From the IMG/VR virus record IMGVR_UViG_3300042542_005523: a stretch of 64,000 bases of DNA; one strand, 5' to 3'. The notes beneath the pieces are model-generated. The model was not told the origin of the DNA. It saw only the letters and a program-made list of their open reading frames with translations, and did no database searches. Every line of letters begins with the position of its first letter. Position 1 is the stretch's first letter. Shown here piece after piece: positions 3 through 55,085 of the stretch. A program made the position numbers and the translations under genes. The DNA is from a virus. Its lineage: Duplodnaviria > Caudoviricetes.

Positions 3-1364
3 CCCGGTATCAATACGATATTAACATACGATAGAGAGGATGCGAAAGAGGATGCCCAGGATGAGATAAATTCTAGAGGCATTGGAGCTTTAACCTTTAA
101 TGACCTATATAGCTATCTTGTAAAAACTCTAAATGACGATAGAAAGGATAGATTGGATCAAGCGGTAAGAGCAAACACGGGATCGGACAGTGGAACTCAG
201 GCAGTTAGAAACGATATAGACAATATATTTCTAAGTCTTTATTCTACAGAACTTCAGAAATGGATAGAGATAATAACCCCTTATATTTCTAAGAGTTTGG
301 CAAATGCATCAGATGAGACATTTTCTGACTCAGCCAAGACAACCCCTTCTTCTCTAGGAATATCATCGGACGGTGAAAATTTTATATCTATAATAGAAGA
401 GAATTCTATTTTTCCTACTGTTAGCTCCCGATCTGTGACTACAGTAGGTGATTTTCAGAAGGAGGTCCAATTTAAAATTGCAATAAAAGCGGGAAGCGAT
501 GTTTCTGTATTACGGGACGTTACCCTTAATAACATACAATATGGCCTTGCTGGTACACCGGTAATTGACATAAGGTTTACATTAAATGGATCTGAGGATT
601 TAAGCGTAGTGGTAACTGATTTATCTACTAGATCTCAGGAAAGATTCACTATAAATAAAGTTTTTGGACAGAATGGTTACCCAGCCGGAAGTCAAAACGA
701 GACATATAGATTTCCTCCTGGCGGGCCAATTTATCCGTCCGCTGCTGTACAGGAGCAGGATGCTGTAAAAAGCGCAAAAGATTCAATTAATGGTGTACTA
801 GGGTCTCTGTCCGCTGACTTCCAACAAAAGTTGATAAATTTCGGATTGGATGCTAAGATAGCTGATCTTATGTCTAAGAGCGATCCTTATCTAGTTATGT
901 CATCTAGTGTAGTCCTATATTGGACTATATTGGGATTGGTTCCTACTTGCTTTGCAGCCAATCCGCCGGTACTTCCTGCTAGCATACCAGCTCCTGGACT
1001 TTTTACTATAATTTTTCCAGGTCTTCCGTTTACGCTTGCTAATAAATTGAGACTGTCTTTTAATGCAGGATTGAATCCCGTCTTTAATCCTGAATTAGAT
1101 CCAAATGGGCTTGTAGAAAAAGCAGCTTCGCTTTCCAATTCTATCGAATCTGAAGAATTTAAAGCTCTTCTTTCCCTTATAGAATCACAGAAGGCCTTGC
1201 TAGAAGCAACAAAGAGCCAAAATCTAGTTTCTAAAGCGGTTTCAACTAAACTCGCAGTTTCTTTTGCATTACATTTGCTTTCTCTGAAGTTTCTATATAC
1301 TGGATCAACTCAGGCAGGACCTGCAACTGTTCCGACCCCTGGATTTGTTTTGCTCGTATTTTAA
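3..1364 (+). CDS. Probable virion/baseplate-associated protein, 5'-truncated, containing an Hsp70 substrate-binding (SBD-beta)-like domain
   Basis: The frame is open from position 3, so the track's TTG at 153 is not the true start. Segment 339-653 aligns by eye with the DnaK SBD at 54360-54683. Pro-rich C-terminal part; sits at the head of the morphogenesis cluster. Confidence 0.6.
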   Translation, partial: PGINTILTYDREDAKEDAQDEINSRGIGALTFNDLYSYLVKTLNDDRKDRLDQAVRANTGSDSGTQAVRNDIDNIFLSLYSTELQKWIEIITPYISKSLANASDETFSDSAKTTPSSLGISSDGENFISIIEENSIFPTVSSRSVTTVGDFQKEVQFKIAIKAGSDVSVLRDVTLNNIQYGLAGTPVIDIRFTLNGSEDLSVVVTDLSTRSQERFTINKVFGQNGYPAGSQNETYRFPPGGPIYPSAAVQEQDAVKSAKDSINGVLGSLSADFQQKLINFGLDAKIADLMSKSDPYLVMSSSVVLYWTILGLVPTCFAANPPVLPASIPAPGLFTIIFPGLPFTLANKLRLSFNAGLNPVFNPELDPNGLVEKAASLSNSIESEEFKALLSLIESQKALLEATKSQNLVSKAVSTKLAVSFALHLLSLKFLYTGSTQAGPATVPTPGFVLLVF

Positions 1365-1423: not shown

Positions 1424-2593
1424 ATGTATCAAGAATTCGAAAATGAAGAATTCAGTTGGGAAAATTCAAACGGATTTAAGCCTAACAAAAAAATTAAGAA
1501 TAATCACGGGATGACTATTTATTGTCATGCTGATTATGCTGAAGAACTTGCTGCGGCATACGCTAAGCATTCTGAAGGACTAGATTGGAATGATCTAGCT
1601 AAGGATCTAGTTGATGGCAGAATGTACCCTTGTAAAATTGTTGCTTTAACTGAAGAAGAGGCTTTTGCCCAGACTGACTCAGGTCAAACAATTTATATTG
1701 ACCTGAAGAAGGAAAGAAGGGATGCTGAAAAATTAAATATCGAGGGTATTGATTTTACAGTAGGTACTAGAATAGAAGCTCACGTTAGAAGAACTCCTAA
1801 GGGATATCTTGGATCTGTTGTTGAGCATTATATAAAGACGCTGAAGTCTGAACTTTTTGATCAAATCAAAAAAGAAACTACAGCTTATAAAGTAAAGGTT
1901 GAGAGCATAAATAAAGGTGGATATATTGTCGATCTTTGTGGTATTAAGTGTTTCATGCCTGGATCCTTGGCTGCAGCTAATAAGATCAAGGATTTCGAAT
2001 CCTATATTGGAAAGGATATACACGTAATGATGGAAGGCTATATAGAGGCAAAAGATACCTTCATTGTTTCTTACAAGAAGTATATTTCCAAGATTATGGA
2101 GCAGAAGATTCAAGAGCTTGACCTAACCAGGAAATATAAAGGCTCCATCACTGGAACAAGCCCATTTGGAGTTTTTGTTGAGTGGGAGGAGATCTATACT
2201 GGCTTGATCCATAAGAGCGAGTTCGAGAGTGACGATGAATTGTCCAAACTTTGTTCAGGTGACGAGATAGAATTCTATGTGAAGGAGATTAAAGAGAACA
2301 ATAAATTGACTCTAACGCTAGATAGACCCTTAGAAAGAAACGTAATTCTTTATGATATTGAGACTCGTGTCGAGGAAGGCACAATAGAGCCAATGCAAGC
2401 TCTCATCAAGCACAAAAGAAAAAATGGAGTGCTTATAGAGATAAGCGATATTGGTCTAATGGCATTTATAAGTTCCGAGCATTTGGGTAAAGGCGATAGA
2501 AATGCTAAGACTGGTGATCCTATTGAAATATTAATATGGAAGATAGACGTTCACACAGGAAAAATATTTGCTAAATCCATAAATGAAGGATAA
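1424..2593 (+). CDS. rpsA: Ribosomal protein S1 (bS1)-like protein with 3-4 S1 RNA-binding domains
   Basis: S1 repeats: KVKVESINKGGYIVDLCGIKCFMPGS, YKGSITGTSPFGVFVEWEEIYTGLIHKSE, GVLIEISDIGLMAFISSEHL. ATG at 1424 follows the track's TTG at 1421. Confidence 0.8.
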   Translation: MYQEFENEEFSWENSNGFKPNKKIKNNHGMTIYCHADYAEELAAAYAKHSEGLDWNDLAKDLVDGRMYPCKIVALTEEEAFAQTDSGQTIYIDLKKERRDAEKLNIEGIDFTVGTRIEAHVRRTPKGYLGSVVEHYIKTLKSELFDQIKKETTAYKVKVESINKGGYIVDLCGIKCFMPGSLAAANKIKDFESYIGKDIHVMMEGYIEAKDTFIVSYKKYISKIMEQKIQELDLTRKYKGSITGTSPFGVFVEWEEIYTGLIHKSEFESDDELSKLCSGDEIEFYVKEIKENNKLTLTLDRPLERNVILYDIETRVEEGTIEPMQALIKHKRKNGVLIEISDIGLMAFISSEHLGKGDRNAKTGDPIEILIWKIDVHTGKIFAKSINEG

Positions 2594-3989
2594 TAGAAAC
2601 CATTTTGAAAAAGCTCAGGCTCTTTCTTTGTCTGATGTTGGGTTTGAATTCGAATTCTTTTCCAATGTTACCAAAGGAAGAGCTGCTGATGCTCTTTCGA
2701 AACTTCTCGGTAAAAAAGTAGATGTATCTAATAAATACCACTCGGATATACCGGTTAACAGGGAGAGATTCAAGTTAGAGCCGGATTACTCGGGGGGTAT
2801 AAGTATGTTAGAACTTGTTACTGGTCCAATGAGTTATAACGAGGCTATACCTGTTATGATCAAGATCCTAAAATGGATAGACGAGAATGGATGGACAAGC
2901 GATAAATGCGCTTTCCAATTCTCAGTTAGTTTTAACCCGGAGAGAGCCAATCTTAAAAATGCGATACAAACGATGGATCATTTAAAGTTCATCCTTGGTA
3001 TTGACGAGAATTTCATTTATTCTAAGTTTGGTAACAGAACAAAGAATGTCTATGCTAAATCTATAAAAAGGGTTTTACCCAGAAGTAGATACATGATATT
3101 GGAGAATATTAGCACTATAGACCCAATGATGTTTAAGACACCTAGTGACAAGTACTATGGTGTGAATTTCACAAAGGCTCCTGATGGATATTTAGAGTTC
3201 AGGTATTTAGGTGGTAAGGATTATCAGAAAAAGATAGAGCCAATCAGAGAGGTTGTTGAATATATCATTCTGTATCTCTATGATATAGTTAGCAAAAGAA
3301 TGGGAGGCTATAGTAAGGAGGACCTAGATAAGCTAAAATCAATGATGAAGGATTATGCTAATGTTGTAAAATGCTTCTCTAAACCTGAGCTTTTCCTTAG
3401 ATATTATCCCGACTTCAAGATATTTATAGATCTTAAAGGATTTGACGGTAATCTAAGAACATATTTCCCTGCAATCAGGGATAAGGTATTTGATCTTGTT
3501 ATAGAAGGCGGTATAACAGATTGCTTTTTTAATTATGACACATCCACAGGGAGATGCCAACTTAAAGGTGCAAGGTCTAGAAATTCTTTTGAGATCTACG
3601 ATTTTGACGTGATTGATTGCGATATAAAGGGTTCTTATTTAAAGAAGTGCAACATATACGATTCTAAGATTAACAAATCAAATCTAGATGAATGCTACCT
3701 AGTAAGAGGTACAGATGTTCTTAATTCTAGAATAGAAGCATGCTCTGTTGAACCTACTAATAAGCTTAAGGACTGCTACATAAACTGTGAACAGAAATCT
3801 ATCAATTGCGAGATTGATGGCGGAGTGCTAAGAGCAGGTATACTTGGTGAATATGCTGAATTAAGTAAGGACACTAAAAAAGTCAAGGGATGGAACGAGG
3901 TTAGAAATGAAAGATTCATAACTGATAAAAGACTTCAGGACCTAAACGATAAATATAAAGGAGCCAAATTTGGCGATATGAATTATTAA
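2583..3989 (+). CDS. Putative amidoligase (COOH-NH2 ligase-like) with C-terminal beta-solenoid repeats
   Basis: Motif order GFEFEF...LEPDYS...ELVT...CAFQFSVS...KYYGVN...LEFR matches the phage amidoligase family. The C-terminus has Cys/Ile/Asn periodic repeats. Confidence 0.6.
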   Translation: MKDNRNHFEKAQALSLSDVGFEFEFFSNVTKGRAADALSKLLGKKVDVSNKYHSDIPVNRERFKLEPDYSGGISMLELVTGPMSYNEAIPVMIKILKWIDENGWTSDKCAFQFSVSFNPERANLKNAIQTMDHLKFILGIDENFIYSKFGNRTKNVYAKSIKRVLPRSRYMILENISTIDPMMFKTPSDKYYGVNFTKAPDGYLEFRYLGGKDYQKKIEPIREVVEYIILYLYDIVSKRMGGYSKEDLDKLKSMMKDYANVVKCFSKPELFLRYYPDFKIFIDLKGFDGNLRTYFPAIRDKVFDLVIEGGITDCFFNYDTSTGRCQLKGARSRNSFEIYDFDVIDCDIKGSYLKKCNIYDSKINKSNLDECYLVRGTDVLNSRIEACSVEPTNKLKDCYINCEQKSINCEIDGGVLRAGILGEYAELSKDTKKVKGWNEVRNERFITDKRLQDLNDKYKGAKFGDMNY

Positions 3990-3997
3990 ACTTCACC

Positions 3998-4804
3998 ATG
4001 ACTGAAACAGAATTAATCCAAGAAATTACAGACGCGCTTAATTTCAGCTGCGGTCTTCCTTATTCCCTTAATGAACAAGAGGTTAGAAGGATTATAAAGA
4101 GAGCCAAGGATTGGTTCTATGATAACTATCAATATTCTGTTGAGGATAGAATGTTCATAATCGGTAAAGCTGTTTTTGCACATCCTGAATGGAGGGCAAC
4201 TAGACAACTGACACTCCCTGATTCGATTGTATCAGTATATGAAGTTAGAGACGTGGGTGGAGCGGGTGTTAGTGGTAATCCAGATAAGGATTTTGGTGAT
4301 TCTAAACTCCTTGGTTCCGAACTGCTGCTATCTCCTTTTATTGGTGATAATCTTGTTTATAGAACAGTTATGTACTCCTATTTTGATTTGGCTAAGGCTT
4401 ATCTATTAGCTACCTATGCTTTCAAATGGAATAAGAACTCAAAGAGACTTACCATTCAAGGACGTGATCCAAATAGATCAGGAGTAGGGGGTTCAAATAG
4501 TAATTCTAATTCACAGTTAGCTCAAGGATTTTCGAGCGGGAATGGCGGATACGATCTATATGTGAGATGTTTTGTTAAAATAGGTGACGAGTATCTTTTC
4601 GATGACGAATTGTTTGTTAGATATTGTATCGCTAAGTCCAAGATAGCTTTAGGAAGAATGCTCGGGACATTTAACTATAATCTACCTGGTGGAGTTCAAG
4701 TAAATGCAACGGATGTCATTAGCGCCGGAACCGAAGAGTTACAGGAGGTCATGGATATGATCAATGGTGAGAACACTCCTAGTTATTTCTTACAGTGGAA
4801 TTAA
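3998..4804 (+). CDS. Neck/head-tail adaptor protein (T4 gp13-like)
   Basis: C-terminal YCIAKSKIALGRMLGTFNYNLPGGVQVN resembles the gp13 LPGGV motif; size and context fit. Confidence 0.7.
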   Translation: MTETELIQEITDALNFSCGLPYSLNEQEVRRIIKRAKDWFYDNYQYSVEDRMFIIGKAVFAHPEWRATRQLTLPDSIVSVYEVRDVGGAGVSGNPDKDFGDSKLLGSELLLSPFIGDNLVYRTVMYSYFDLAKAYLLATYAFKWNKNSKRLTIQGRDPNRSGVGGSNSNSNSQLAQGFSSGNGGYDLYVRCFVKIGDEYLFDDELFVRYCIAKSKIALGRMLGTFNYNLPGGVQVNATDVISAGTEELQEVMDMINGENTPSYFLQWN

Positions 4805-4878: not shown

Positions 4879-5250
4879 ATGAGAGACATTTACAACAGAG
4901 ATCCACAAGATCCTAATTACGTACCTTACATCTTAGAGGTCACAGATCCAATAGAGATCTGTGTTGGCCAGCTTAAAATGATGCTCTTGACAGACAAGGG
5001 TGAAGTTTTAGGTGATCCTAAATTTGGGCTTGCCTTGGAATCTTTAATTTTCGAATTAAATCTATCTCAGGACTCTATAAGAAAAGAGCTAGATCTTCAT
5101 CTGTCAACATATTGCCCGCTTTTTAGAGTACTCGGTGGAACATATGATTTGAAGTTTTATTTGGGTACGAATAGGGATATAGCATTTCTAGATTTTCTTT
5201 TGCCATACCAAGGCGATCAAAGTCCAGTTGTTAGTTTAAAGTTAAGTTAA
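4879..5250 (+). CDS. Baseplate wedge subunit (gp25-like)
   Basis: QLKMMLLTDKGEVLGDPKFGLALESLIFE is the gp25/GPW-type signature; lies directly before the gp6-like gene. Confidence 0.75.
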   Translation: MRDIYNRDPQDPNYVPYILEVTDPIEICVGQLKMMLLTDKGEVLGDPKFGLALESLIFELNLSQDSIRKELDLHLSTYCPLFRVLGGTYDLKFYLGTNRDIAFLDFLLPYQGDQSPVVSLKLS

Positions 5251-5255
5251 AAAGC

Positions 5256-7001
5256 ATGAACATATATCAAAAGAATAGAATTCTAATCAGCGGTCTCTTA
5301 TCGGACACTTATGTTTTTCTACAGAGAACATACAATCAGTCTAGAAACGTATTTACCGCTGCTTCAGCTTGGGGACAAATACTTTTTGTATTACAGAACC
5401 TATCGCAGATGATCCTTTATTTCATAGAGGACTCAATTACCGAATTGAACATTTATCAAGCAACACGGGACTACTCAGTGAAGAGCATAGCTAGACTATC
5501 TGGGTATGATCCAGGTAGAGCATCTACAGCTCAGGGCGAGATCTCAATACAATGGAATCTTAATACTGCTCCAGTTGGTGGGGGATCAGTTATAATAGCG
5601 AACAACACACAGGTTCAATGTATACAGAACGGTAAGTACTATTCTATGATGTTACCCTCTCCGACGGTTACCTTCAATCTTGTGCCCAATAACACTCTAA
5701 GGGTTAAGATAGCACAGGGAACAGTTCAAAATGCGACTGTTACGGGGACTGGACTTGCACTTCAATCTTTTAACATACCTTCTAAATCGGGAGCTTTTAT
5801 TGATCAATATTATGTGAACGTTTATGTGAATGAGGAGAAGTGGAAAAGATATGATTCTTTTTATGATATGCCTTTGCAGGGATCTACTTTCATAGTAAGA
5901 ACCGGTATTTCACAGGGAATTGATGTCTATTTTGGTAATGGTAATTTTGGCAAGGTTCCACCTCCTGGATCTATAATAAGAATAGAGTACATACAGACAC
6001 TAGGAGGACAAGGAAATCTTAGATCAACAGCAGATAAGCCAATTACTTATAGATTCACAACTTTAGGGACCGATCTATTTGGACAGCAGCTTAATCTTAA
6101 TGATTGTGTTAATATCAGAAATGAGGTTGATCCTTTGTTTGGTAGCGATCCCGAGAGTACTGAACTTATAAGATTGGTTGCACCCTATACTAGTAGAGCG
6201 TTCGTTCTGGCAAATCCACAATCGTATGAAATATATTTGACAAGATTAAATATTTTCTCGCAAATACATGCTTACTCTACTTTTGAAGATGAATATTTGG
6301 ACGATGATAATATAGTTTACATTTATCTAGTTCCAGATATAACTCTCAACCTAGAATCAAACCAGGATTACTTTGATATACCCACAGCGGAGTTTATACT
6401 TTCACCTGAAATGAAATTAGCTATAATAAATCTTCTGGAGGATTCAGGACAAATGATAGCTACTACCGTGTTAAAGATAATTGATCCAGCTATAACTAGG
6501 ATAGTTGGTAACGCTTCTGTTACGATATTTGAAGGCAACGATCCAACTACCATAAAGAACACTATCCGTAGATCCATAGCAAGCTATATGCTCAATCTAA
6601 AGAGAAGAGACAGAATACCAAGATCTGATATTATCGCTATATTAGAATCTATACCAGGTGTTGACTCAGCTAACTTCTTTTTTACAAGCCAGAAGAATGA
6701 AGCAAATCAGTTAACAATGCAGGGTGCTACTAATTTAAACGCTGCAACACTTAACACTCAGGTTGGAATAGATTCTTTCGGTGACATCCTCATAGGAAGA
6801 AATGAGTTAGTAATAATGAGAGGAGGATGGACAGACCGTTACGGCGTGACCTATAAAGAAGGTATCGTTGATGGCGCACCTTGTTCTTTGAATATTGATA
6901 TACCTTATGTGGTTCCTAATACATTTAACACAGAATCCGCTAAGAACCAGAAGTCTGTTATTATTGATTCTAACAGCCAGACCGTACCAAGAACAATGTA
7001 A
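5256..7001 (+). CDS. Baseplate wedge protein (gp6/baseplate J-like)
   Basis: ATRDYSVKSIARLSGYDP..ASTA, VYFGNGNFGKVPP.GS.IRIEY..T.G..GN, DPESTELIR.VAP. Confidence 0.8.
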   Translation: MNIYQKNRILISGLLSDTYVFLQRTYNQSRNVFTAASAWGQILFVLQNLSQMILYFIEDSITELNIYQATRDYSVKSIARLSGYDPGRASTAQGEISIQWNLNTAPVGGGSVIIANNTQVQCIQNGKYYSMMLPSPTVTFNLVPNNTLRVKIAQGTVQNATVTGTGLALQSFNIPSKSGAFIDQYYVNVYVNEEKWKRYDSFYDMPLQGSTFIVRTGISQGIDVYFGNGNFGKVPPPGSIIRIEYIQTLGGQGNLRSTADKPITYRFTTLGTDLFGQQLNLNDCVNIRNEVDPLFGSDPESTELIRLVAPYTSRAFVLANPQSYEIYLTRLNIFSQIHAYSTFEDEYLDDDNIVYIYLVPDITLNLESNQDYFDIPTAEFILSPEMKLAIINLLEDSGQMIATTVLKIIDPAITRIVGNASVTIFEGNDPTTIKNTIRRSIASYMLNLKRRDRIPRSDIIAILESIPGVDSANFFFTSQKNEANQLTMQGATNLNAATLNTQVGIDSFGDILIGRNELVIMRGGWTDRYGVTYKEGIVDGAPCSLNIDIPYVVPNTFNTESAKNQKSVIIDSNSQTVPRTM

Positions 7002-16837: not shown

Positions 16838-16890
16838 AAATAAGTGGATAAATCGAATCCTTTTTGTTTATAAGTAATATAATATCTAAT

Positions 16891-17571
16891 ATGGAAAAAC
16901 TATCAAAAATCCCAAATTCGGAAAAAAGAAAACCTAAAAATCCGATAAGATTTAAAATTGAATTAAACGAGGAACAAAAAATAGCAAAATCACTGATTTA
17001 CGATAATCCTGTTGTCTTGATAAAAGGTCAAGCAGGATCTGGTAAGACTTTAGTTGCTTGCCAGGTTGCTATGGACATGTTTTTCAAAAGGGAAATAGAA
17101 AAGATCATAATAACCAGACCGACTGTAGCAAAAGAGGATATAGGTTTTTTGCCCGGAGATCTTAAGGAAAAAATGGATCCGTGGTTGGCTCCCATCTATT
17201 CAAATCTCCATCTTTTATACGATAGAGAGAAAGTTGATAAGATGCTAGCTGAGAATCAAATAGAGATAGTGCCTTTTGCCTTCATGAGAGGTAGAACATT
17301 CCCTAATTCCTTCGTTGTCGTTGACGAGTGTCAAAACATCACACACAGTCAAACCGAGATGATGCTAGGCCGCTTAGGTAAAGGTGGTAAAATGGTTTTC
17401 TGCGGGGACATAACACAATCGGATCTTAAGAATAAGAAAGAAAGCGGAATAAGCTTTTTTGCTAGATTAGAGGAGAATGTTAAGGGTGTTAAAGTGATCT
17501 CGCTTAAAACTAATCATAGACACGAAATAGTGGAACCGATCCTTAGAGTTTACGGTGACTTTAGAGATTAG
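16891..17571 (+). CDS. phoH: PhoH-like ATPase
   Basis: GQAGSGKT Walker A, ITRPTV, IGFLPGDLKEKMDPW, MRGRTF, VDECQN, GDITQSD, NHRH. ATG 16891 is preferred over the track's TTG. Confidence 0.95.
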   Translation: MEKLSKIPNSEKRKPKNPIRFKIELNEEQKIAKSLIYDNPVVLIKGQAGSGKTLVACQVAMDMFFKREIEKIIITRPTVAKEDIGFLPGDLKEKMDPWLAPIYSNLHLLYDREKVDKMLAENQIEIVPFAFMRGRTFPNSFVVVDECQNITHSQTEMMLGRLGKGGKMVFCGDITQSDLKNKKESGISFFARLEENVKGVKVISLKTNHRHEIVEPILRVYGDFRD

Positions 17572-53201: not shown

Positions 53202-55085
53202 ATGGGAAAAGTAATTGGAATTGACTTGGGAACAACAAACTCTTGTGTTTCGGTCATAGAAGCAGATCAGCCAGTTGTTATTGTTAATGCCGAGGGAAAG
53301 AGAACAACTCCAAGCGTTATCGGATTCAACGATGGTGAAATTAAAATCGGGGATCCAGCTAGGAGACAAGCTGTGACAAACCCTACGAACACATTGTACT
53401 CTGTTAAGAGATTCATTGGATCTAACTTTGACGATGTGAAGAAAGAGGCTAAGAAAATGCCTTATGTGGTTAAAAAGGGCAGCGATAATAGAGTTATCGT
53501 GGAAGCTAATGGAAGAGATTATATCCCACAGGAGATCGCAGCTATGGTTCTTCAGAATCTTAAAAGAGTTGCAGAGGATTACCTCGGAAGCGAAGTAACA
53601 GAAGCGGTTATCACTGTGCCTGCTTATTTTAATGACGCACAGAGGCAAGCAACAAAAGAGGCAGGTGAGATTGCTGGTCTTAATGTATTGAGAATTATCA
53701 ACGAGCCAACGGCTGCAGCACTAGCTTATGGACTTGATAAAATGGACAAAGATCAAAAGGTAGCGGTATATGACCTCGGCGGTGGTACATTTGACGTATC
53801 CATCTTGGAAATAGGATCTGGCGTATTTGAAGTTCTTTCAACTAACGGTGACACACATCTTGGTGGTGACAACTTCGATGAGAAGATCATTGATTGGATT
53901 GTGGAAGAGTTCAAGTCGCAAACTGGAATAGATGCCTCTAAGGACCCAATGGCTTATCAACGTATTAGAGAAGCTGCTGAGAAGGCTAAAATCGAATTAT
54001 CAAATTCATCAGAAACAGAAATTAACCTACCTTATCTAAGCGCTCTTTCAGATGGGCCTAAGCACTTTGTAGGTAAACTTTCGAGAGCTAAATTTGAGCA
54101 AATGATTGATGATTTAATTCAGAAGACACTTGCTCCCTGTAGAAAAGCTATCAAAGATTCCAAACTTAAAGTTTCTGAAATAGATGAGATTCTATTGGTT
54201 GGTGGATCAACAAGAATTCCTAAGGTTCAAGAGGAAGTAGAAAAGCTATTTGGTAAAAAGCCAAATAAGAGCGTAAATCCCGATGAGGTTGTTGCTATTG
54301 GAGCGGCAGTTCAGGGAGCAGTTTTAAAAGGAGACATCACGGACGTTCTTTTGCTTGATGTTACACCGCTTTCTTTAGGTATTGAAACAATGGGAGGTGT
54401 ATTCACCAAATTGATTGAAGCTAACTCAACTATCCCTATTAGAAAAAGCGAGTCATTCTCTACTGCCGTTGATAACCAGGCAAATGTGGAAATCCATGTT
54501 TTACAGGGTGAAAGACCAATGGCTTCAGATAACAAGACTCTGGGAAGATTCATGCTAACTGATGTTCCGCCTGCTCCAAGAGGGATTCCTCAGATTGAAG
54601 TTACCTTTGATATTGATGCTAACGGTATCATTAGCGTTTCTGCTAAGGATAAAGGAACAGGTAAAGAGCAGAACATCAAGATTGAATCTGGTAACAAGCT
54701 GTCAGATGATGAAATCAAGAAGATGAAGGATGACGCTTTATCTAATGAGAAAGCAGACAAGGAAAGACTTAAGTTATCCCAGGCTAAAAATGAGTTGGAT
54801 GGCTTAATTTTCCAAGCTGAAAAAATGATTAAAGATTTTGAAGAAAAGACATCTGAGGAGGAAAGAGCTAAGATTAATTCTATGATCGAGTCCGCTAAGG
54901 AGACCGTAAAAGGTGAGGATGCTGAAAAGATGGAATCTAGCACCAAGGATCTAGTCGAGGCACTCCAAGAAATCTCCACTAAAGTTTATGCTCAAGAGCA
55001 AGCTAACTCCGGCGAAGCTGGTGAAACAACTAGCTCAACAAGCACAGAAGCTGAAGAGGTTGAATTTGAGGAGGTTAAGGGATAA
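53202..55085 (+). CDS. dnaK: Chaperone DnaK (Hsp70)
   Basis: [50 protein letters not shown], full SBD and lid. Confidence 0.98.

Follow-up and report, generated by a model that had tools for sequence, protein, structure and literature searches.

The substrate-binding domain (SBD) of Hsp70 is almost always joined to an ATPase domain, which times the grip on a peptide and its release. What does such a domain do when it stands alone, inside a protein encoded among the tail genes of a phage? The question is raised by the 5′ end of a 64,000-nucleotide (nt) stretch of DNA from an uncultured lake-water giant phage of the Caudoviricetes (IMG/VR record IMGVR_UViG_3300042542_005523), the whole of which is hereafter called the window. 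The open reading frame (ORF) P0001 runs there in frame +3 from base 3 to a stop codon at 1362-1364, is open at the 5′ end of the window and comprises 453 residues. A preliminary description made from the sequence had read in this ORF an isolated Hsp70 SBD, aligned by hand to that of the phage's own DnaK (P0002). Here we report that the ORF encodes an SBD-beta of the Hsp70 type without an ATPase domain, in a phage protein encoded directly behind a tail-spike gene, and we propose that it may serve as an ATP-independent peptide clamp in the assembly of the baseplate centre.

Comparison of P0001 with the phage DnaK by BLASTP yielded 32 identities over 107 positions, with 3 gapped positions in one 3-residue gap (E = 8e-8), and paired residues 114-217 with 388-494. 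The hand alignment, which had counted about 32 identities over about 108 columns with one 3-residue gap, is reproduced in the same pairing. The Pfam HSP70 profile (PF00012) matched P0001 with 27.7 bits (E = 1e-6), above its gathering cut-off of 20.6 bits, at profile positions 389-499 only; it is also the sole Pfam match of the full-length protein P0003 described below, with 27.3 bits at the low end of the range and profile positions 389-500. A profile of 16 family sequences searched against the PDB retrieved solved Hsp70 SBDs at E values from 3e-16 (HSPA1A) to about 1e-11 (E. coli DnaK). Furthermore, a Foldseek search with the predicted structure returned Hsp70 SBDs alone among the top 50 hits (1dkz, E = 3e-9), and VIA-align superimposed model residues 297-408 on DnaK residues 389-503 (4r5j_B, 4r5k_B) with a Z score of 14.1 and a root-mean-square deviation (rmsd) of 2.1 Å over 109-110 residues. 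By sequence and predicted structure alike, the plus strand of the window encodes at 324-665 a true Hsp70 SBD-beta, with the whole eight-stranded beta-sandwich present in the model. The preliminary description had identified the domain correctly; its span of 339-653 was slightly too narrow, as judged from the structural alignment.

The complete gene was read from G001, a viral record that holds 47% of the window's sampled 31-mers. It contains a gene of 642 codons (P0003; L001:1501-3426, minus strand) 99% identical to P0001; the window carries residues 190-642 of P0003, and the upstream 189 residues were taken from G001. In P0003, 296 residues precede the SBD, all of them helical in the AlphaFold2 model, and neither Pfam nor PHROG assigns a family to this part. 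The Hsp70 ATPase domain is an alpha/beta, actin-like fold of about 380 residues, for which 296 helical residues leave no room; the domain is therefore absent, and what had been noted for the visible part of the ORF also holds for the missing 189 residues. The preliminary description had named an upstream ATPase domain as a result that would overturn its reading, and it withstands this check. The hydrophobic interdomain linker is absent as well: F-S-D-S-A-K-T precedes T-P-S-S-L-G in P0003, where the phage DnaK has D-V-L-L-L-D-V. Without a nucleotide-binding domain or linker, P0003 cannot run the ATP-driven cycle of binding and release.

Is the peptide pocket retained? In the DnaK–peptide structure of Zhu et al. 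(1996), the pocket is reportedly formed by I401, F426, V436 and I438, the peptide backbone is contacted by Q433, S427 and T428, and M404 and A429 form an arch. Equivalent residues (P0003 number + 92 = DnaK number) were assigned with a check against the PDB chain ranges in VIA-align. In alignment A1, which holds 16 family sequences, the equivalents of I401 and Q433 are Ile and Gln, and those of S427 and T428 are Thr and Thr, in 16 of 16. The remaining pocket positions are occupied by V/I/L (F426), A/V (V436) and F/I (I438), and the pocket is retained across the 16 members down to about 36% identity. Between two lineages at 87% protein identity, the ratio of nonsynonymous to synonymous substitution rates (dN/dS) is 0.154 in the SBD versus 0.06-0.11 in the other segments of the gene. 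Judged from these substitutions, the SBD is under purifying selection, with its hydrophobic pocket kept and its arch remodeled.

The protein that carries the domain belongs to a widespread, well-folding and uncharacterized protein family of uncultured freshwater large phages. A HMMER search of 1.84 billion cluster representatives gave 86 matches in three groups by matched region: full-length relatives; ordinary Hsp70s that match the SBD alone; and 45 SBD-less phage proteins of 78-740 amino acids (aa) that align solely with the C-terminal module (residues ~480-642) or, in many cases, with the N-terminal 100 residues as well. Alignments A1, A3 and A5 show the family hallmarks, namely an N-terminal M-A-N-W...G-P-F...Y-Y region and a C-terminal D-P-Y / P-P-V-P-P / H-L-L-S-L-K-F-L-Y module. 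Modeling of a 314-aa relative (P0029) from a 53-sequence alignment reached a predicted local distance difference test (pLDDT) score of 88.7 and a predicted template modeling (TM) score of 0.71, with the N and C halves packed together. In this family the N half (~100 residues) and the C half (~120-160 residues) form one compact domain, with a variable segment inserted between them. The insertion site lies between a long helix bearing the family-wide L-Y-x-x-E-L and P-Y-I motif (P0003 253-288), which directly precedes the insert and is common to the SBD-less P0026, and the D-P-Y helix (P0003 483 onward). These two helices are about 45 residues apart in the 475-aa P0026 versus about 196 in P0003.

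The core fold recurs in viral clusters of the ESM Atlas of 137-188 aa (TM score by hit 0.79-0.86, rmsd 2.3-2.5 Å) and in the BFVD entries A0A6J5MBZ8 and A0A8S5RUZ0 (Foldseek probability 0.96-0.97); these share the compact N+C fold, have neither insert nor SBD, and are functionally uncharacterized. Against the PDB, Foldseek gave the core model a best E value of 0.63 and no clear solved relative, and VIA-align against 48,161 chains gave a best Z score of 5.1, within noise, with helical membrane proteins on top. At the sequence level, tblastn of P0001, P0003 and P0029 produced no match in 50,697 GenBank phage records, and among PHROGs only phrog_22485 (unknown function) matched, over the SBD, with none for the core or ten relatives. 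The family profile retrieved nothing at E up to 1 from the whole genomes of T4, PAU and pT24; PAU gp260 and gp261, encoded after the PAU spike, show no similarity to the family, and T4 gp5.1 gave an hhalign probability of 1.3%, a comparison by sequence alone that leaves a shared fold still possible.

How often was the SBD gained? In a maximum-likelihood tree of 381 core columns, from which an occupancy filter had left out the SBD columns, the seven SBD-bearing representatives form one clade, with a support of 93 in the Shimodaira–Hasegawa-like approximate likelihood-ratio test, and the SBD-less P0026 is their sister (96). SBD-less relatives are 297-316 and 475 aa long, and in two of the related loci, L016 and L003, an SBD-less form occupies the same genomic slot. 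A single gain of the SBD suffices to account for this distribution. Once gained, the domain was retained in a clade that has diverged to 36-40% identity. In members of 769-783 aa, linkers lie on both sides of it, one rich in Gly, Gln and Ser (about 80 residues) and one rich in Gly and Ala (about 45 residues), and such putatively flexible flanks fit a module that is tethered and acts on its own. The SBD shares 30% identity with that of the phage's own DnaK and 31-36% with assorted divergent Hsp70s; being no closer to the former than to unrelated Hsp70s, it did not arise by a recent duplication of the phage DnaK. Its nearest Hsp70s are assorted divergent members (from Borrelia, a haloarchaeon and metagenomic proteins), and in the PDB profile search Hsp70s of the eukaryotic type score 58-62 bits versus about 46 bits for E. 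coli DnaK; no donor is read from either result.

The position of the gene links the family to the tail. In G001 and six lake-metagenome loci, the order is gp27-like (506-521 aa), a gene of 400-1114 aa, the Phage_base_V spike (223-503 aa), the family gene, S1, amidoligase-like, gp13-like, gp25-like and gp6-like. The family gene lies directly 3′ of a Phage_base_V (gp5/gpV-like) spike gene in seven loci (G001, L005, L006, L007, L014, L016 and L018); in L003 it is preceded by a 129-aa ORF. A search for related loci with alignment A1 retrieved two from IMG/VR. In G001, L006 and L016 the start codon of the family gene follows the spike stop after 2 nt, in L018 the two overlap by 1 nt, and the two genes are probably translationally coupled. 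In L016 a 312-aa SBD-less form stands between a 223-aa spike gene and the S1 gene. No terminator-like site was found on the plus strand of the window between positions 1 and 5300. A complex prediction of the spike trimer (three copies from alignment A4) with the SBD-less core (A5) scored 0.00, which is evidence neither way. The preliminary description had placed the SBD within a protein of a morphogenesis cluster and called the domain co-opted. The first statement agrees with a gene behind the spike and before the neck and baseplate genes, the second with SBD-less relatives in the same slot and SBD bearers in one clade; its overall interpretation stands in these two parts.

These observations enable us to propose a putative model, to which we assign a probability of about 0.5: an ATP-independent peptide clamp that acts on a segment of a tail-tip protein while the baseplate centre is assembled. 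In one clade, the variable insert of the spike-adjacent late protein acquired an Hsp70 SBD once, with neither its ATPase domain nor its interdomain linker. The SBD would still be a hydrophobic peptide clamp and, since there is no nucleotide cycle, would act independently of ATP as a holdase or tether. During assembly of the baseplate centre, the clamp may hold an extended segment, hydrophobic or Pro-rich, that belongs to a tail-tip protein, be it the spike, a hub protein or a linker motif of its own chain. Release, if any, would come about as the client folds or assembles. The Y-R-F-P-P motif, which 12 of the 13 proteins with 635-678 aa in alignment A1 carry 14-25 residues past the last SBD strand, is a candidate that could occupy the cleft as a ligand in cis or else serve for docking.

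Several points weigh against this model. Membership of the virion is inferred only from the position of the gene beside the spike gene. In alignment A1 the arch residue M404 is replaced by Asp, Asn or Ser and A429 by Ile, Val or Thr, yielding a cleft that differs from that of DnaK, and therefore specificity, or binding itself, may have changed; because the arch residues vary among true Hsp70s too, this change touches the claim of specificity and not that of homology. An alpha-helical lid is doubtful in the P0003 model. The hidden Markov model alignment to 4po2_A reaches residue 480, and chains that bear the lid score 62.4 versus 58.1 bits for chains with SBD-beta only, a gain of about 4 bits; the overlay past P0003 residue 414 is poor (rmsd 4-10 Å in VIA-align), and a low-confidence linker occupies the position of helix A of the Hsp70 lid. 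An SBD without a lid grips peptides less tightly. In addition, the AlphaFold2 model of full-length P0003 is poor outside the SBD (mean pLDDT 54.7, against 66-80 over the SBD). Finally, the S1 and amidoligase-like genes belong to the same operon, so that the stretch is not wholly obviously structural.

The alternative that survives best, although we consider it unlikely, is that the protein is a virion-borne, host-directed module, located at the tail tip or ejected with the spike, whose SBD binds host polypeptides either as an adhesin on an exposed, extended segment of a surface protein or, after ejection, on unfolded proteins of the envelope or cytoplasm, as a holdase or as a decoy in competition with the host DnaK. 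Coupling to the spike gene would suit such a role, as would the SBD on long flexible linkers in some members, and a conserved core with a lineage-specific middle of 0 to ~500 residues resembles a cargo adapter. However, the protein shows no signal peptide or receptor-binding fold, and we know of no precedent for an Hsp70 SBD as an adhesin; the length of the insert tracks the family tree, unshuffled, which suits a structural or assembly role equally well. That a motor-less Hsp70 clamp is displayed on the tail tip or ejected with the spike and then used on host polypeptides, as an adhesin or, once injected, as a holdase or a decoy intercepting the clients of host DnaK, appears quite improbable to us; if true, it would amount to a way of recognizing or taking over the host that has been described for no phage.

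Similarly improbable is that the domain is a structural relic, a beta-sandwich that has lost the binding of extended peptides and serves as a rigid spacer or protein–protein interface in the baseplate centre. Such sandwiches are frequent building blocks, used again and again in the structural proteins of phages, and the loss of the arch Met404, the enlargement at Ala429, and the lack of an ATPase domain and of a clear lid all agree with such a relic. Yet the residues kept, namely the equivalents of I401 and Q433 and the T-T pair, are those that line the peptide pocket or contact the backbone, which a spacer would not need; moreover, flexible linkers on both sides are ill-suited to a rigid block.

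It is very unlikely that the family resembles a tape measure or lies in the tube lumen, with its ends docked at the hub and with the SBD as an accessory domain of the sort that some tape-measure proteins have. The idea arises from the AlphaFold DB cluster that matches the core best, a 160-aa protein auto-named 'tail tape measure C-terminal domain-containing' (probability 1.00, TM score by hit 0.69), from the conserved ends and the middle of variable length, and from the finding that the likely lineage of this phage has yielded no tape-measure gene (PMC12619734). However, the auto-name of this one AlphaFold DB neighbor is the only link; the N and C halves form one compact domain at high confidence, and the minimal members, of 137-188 residues, are far too short for the tail of a jumbo phage. 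The Pfam family Tape_meas_lam_C (PF09718) has no match at E up to 10 in G001 or in the related phage G002 and none in 53 family members, the best fragment match being weak and on an N-terminal fragment (P0050; E = 0.095, 13.2 bits versus a cut-off of 23); the C-terminus of lambda gpH gave a probability of 0.2 against the family profile. Two weak local tape-measure alignments disagree in register and were rejected as noise. Lastly, the ORF is cut by the window and its N-terminus lies outside, but the idea that P0003 is a divergent Hsp70 with an ATPase domain further upstream has next to no probability, given a 99%-identical full-length gene with just 296 helical residues before the SBD, an M-A-N-W start invariant in 16 relatives and located 2 nt past the spike stop, a Pfam HSP70 match confined to profile positions 389-500, and the combined absence of ATPase domain and interdomain linker.

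The features of the window that bear on this argument are collected in Table 1.

Table 1. Segments of the SBD-bearing gene, its downstream neighbors and the phage DnaK gene, in window positions.
Feature	Position	Strand	Evidence
C-terminal 453 codons and stop of the 642-aa spike-adjacent protein	3..1364	+	99% identity across all 453 residues to the G001 gene
End of the helical N-terminal extension (P0003 190-296)	3..323	+	AlphaFold2 secondary structure; invariant A1 columns
Hsp70 substrate-binding beta-sandwich (SBD-beta; P0003 297-410 ~ DnaK 389-503)	324..665	+	BLASTP, Pfam, profile, Foldseek, VIA-align
Linear motif Y-R-F-P-P-[GD]-G-P-[IL]-x-P-S (P0003 424-435), immediately past the SBD within a low-confidence linker	705..740	+	Alignment A1; pLDDT <50
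Helices P0003 436-480, either Hsp70 lid remnant (helix B) or the family's own linker helices	741..875	+	Lid homology weak
C-terminal half of the host family core: D-P-Y motif, Pro-rich P-P-V-P-P stretch, H-L-L-S-L-K-F-L-Y motif, C-terminal V-F	876..1361	+	Family alignments; model of the 314-aa relative
Four-domain S1/OB protein, next gene in most related loci (L003 without S1 gene)	1424..2593	+	Pfam S1 E 2.8e-15; synteny
Amidoligase-like protein	2583..3989	+	Pfam Amidoligase_2 26.9 bits; synteny
gp13-like neck protein	3998..4804	+	PHROG 211; Pfam Phage_T4_gp13 on orthologs
123-aa ORF, probably a gp25-like wedge protein	4879..5250	+	117-aa L014 ortholog with weak GPW_gp25 match
gp6-like baseplate wedge protein	5256..7001	+	PHROG 219 E 1.9e-34
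Full-length phage DnaK (P0002), SBD-beta at ~54360-54683	53202..55085	+	Pfam HSP70 852.9 bits, profile positions 1-598

The spike encoded before the family gene (P0004; L001:3432-4109, minus strand) is much more conserved than its neighbor, with 72-99% among the 120 relatives listed. Spikes of alignment A4 are 219-231 aa long and resemble a short P2 gpV: an OB fold (Phage_base_V) leads into a short section resembling a beta-helix, no lysozyme domain is present, and close to the C-terminus stands an invariant H-x-H that resembles the iron-binding apex of P2 gpV-type spikes. The nearest cultured relatives of the spike come from Bacteroidota jumbo phages (Tenacibaculum phages and Lak phages) and Sphingomonas phage PAU. 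Just upstream of the spike gene in G001, outside the window, an 804-aa protein (L002:4825-7239, minus strand) combines a conserved N-terminal domain of about 470 residues with Pro-rich repeats, a 23-residue unit of the form V-P-G-x-D-L-G-V-P-D-R-V-Y-P...G-D-x-Y in 7-15 tandem copies. The repeats are present in the orthologs of L006, L018 and L016 and absent from the 400-aa ortholog of L014. As a ligand co-occurring with the SBD they were rejected, since the SBD-less L016 has them too; binding is still possible.

Downstream, the S1/OB and amidoligase-like folds are oddly located, past the spike-adjacent gene and ahead of the gp13-like neck gene. Farther on, a PhoH-like ATPase (window 16864-17571, plus strand; PHROG 170, E = 1e-67) lies amid very large tail-cluster ORFs (1187-1833 aa) without a named family. 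Regarding DnaK itself, the related phage G002, a 180,758-base IMG/VR contig that holds locus L013, has the gene in two frames (C1:118167-120358, minus strand), covering HSP70 profile positions 1-195 and 196-598 and lying about 410 bases apart, as if an intron or some other insertion interrupted it; in the window itself the DnaK gene is intact.

The lineage of the window phage fits the freshwater 'moraphages', which have predicted Bacteroidota hosts and genes for DnaK and DnaJ (PMC12619734). That paper makes no mention of an SBD fusion ('substrate-binding' occurs 0 times), and in its DnaK tree a single moraphage 'DnaK' has a very long branch, which is explained there by an independent acquisition. 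This 'DnaK' could be an SBD-only protein like P0003, picked up by an HSP70 profile. Our literature searches retrieved no account of a phage tail protein that carries an Hsp70 SBD lacking the ATPase.

In summary, this is a known domain in a new architectural and biological context, within a protein family of unknown fold: a clamp freed of its ATPase and built into a phage tail-cluster protein, which purifying selection has maintained while these abundant uncultured lake phages radiated deeply. Should it bind peptides, it would represent a natural Hsp70 clamp without nucleotide control and a new type of phage device for assembly or infection, and the ligand of the clamp would give a direct handle on the role of the spike-accompanying family.

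Compared with the SBD of Hsp70/DnaK (PF00012; 1DKX/1DKZ, 4R5J, 4PO2), P0003 shares the whole beta-sandwich, the T-P-x-S-L-G-I start, the pocket and Q433; it differs in lacking the nucleotide-binding domain, the hydrophobic linker and a clear lid, and in that its SBD sits in an unrelated phage protein. The phage's own DnaK has a member of the same domain family in the same genome, yet the two SBDs are just 30% identical. Among viruses, the HSP70h of plant closteroviruses is an Hsp70 homolog that resides in the virion tail, and, on our model, both cases represent the use of an Hsp70-derived protein in virion assembly or structure. However, HSP70h is a stand-alone protein of a plant RNA virus and keeps its ATPase, whereas here SBD-beta alone is fused to a phage tail-cluster protein. 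Chaperones for the assembly of phage tails and fibers, such as T4 gp38 and gp57A, P2/Mu Tfa and lambda gpG/GT, are encoded beside their clients. Like them, the family gene adjoins a tail structural gene, and the ATP-independent holding of a client that we propose would be the same; these chaperones differ from the family in having no known relation to it in sequence or fold, and none of them is known to use an Hsp70 domain.

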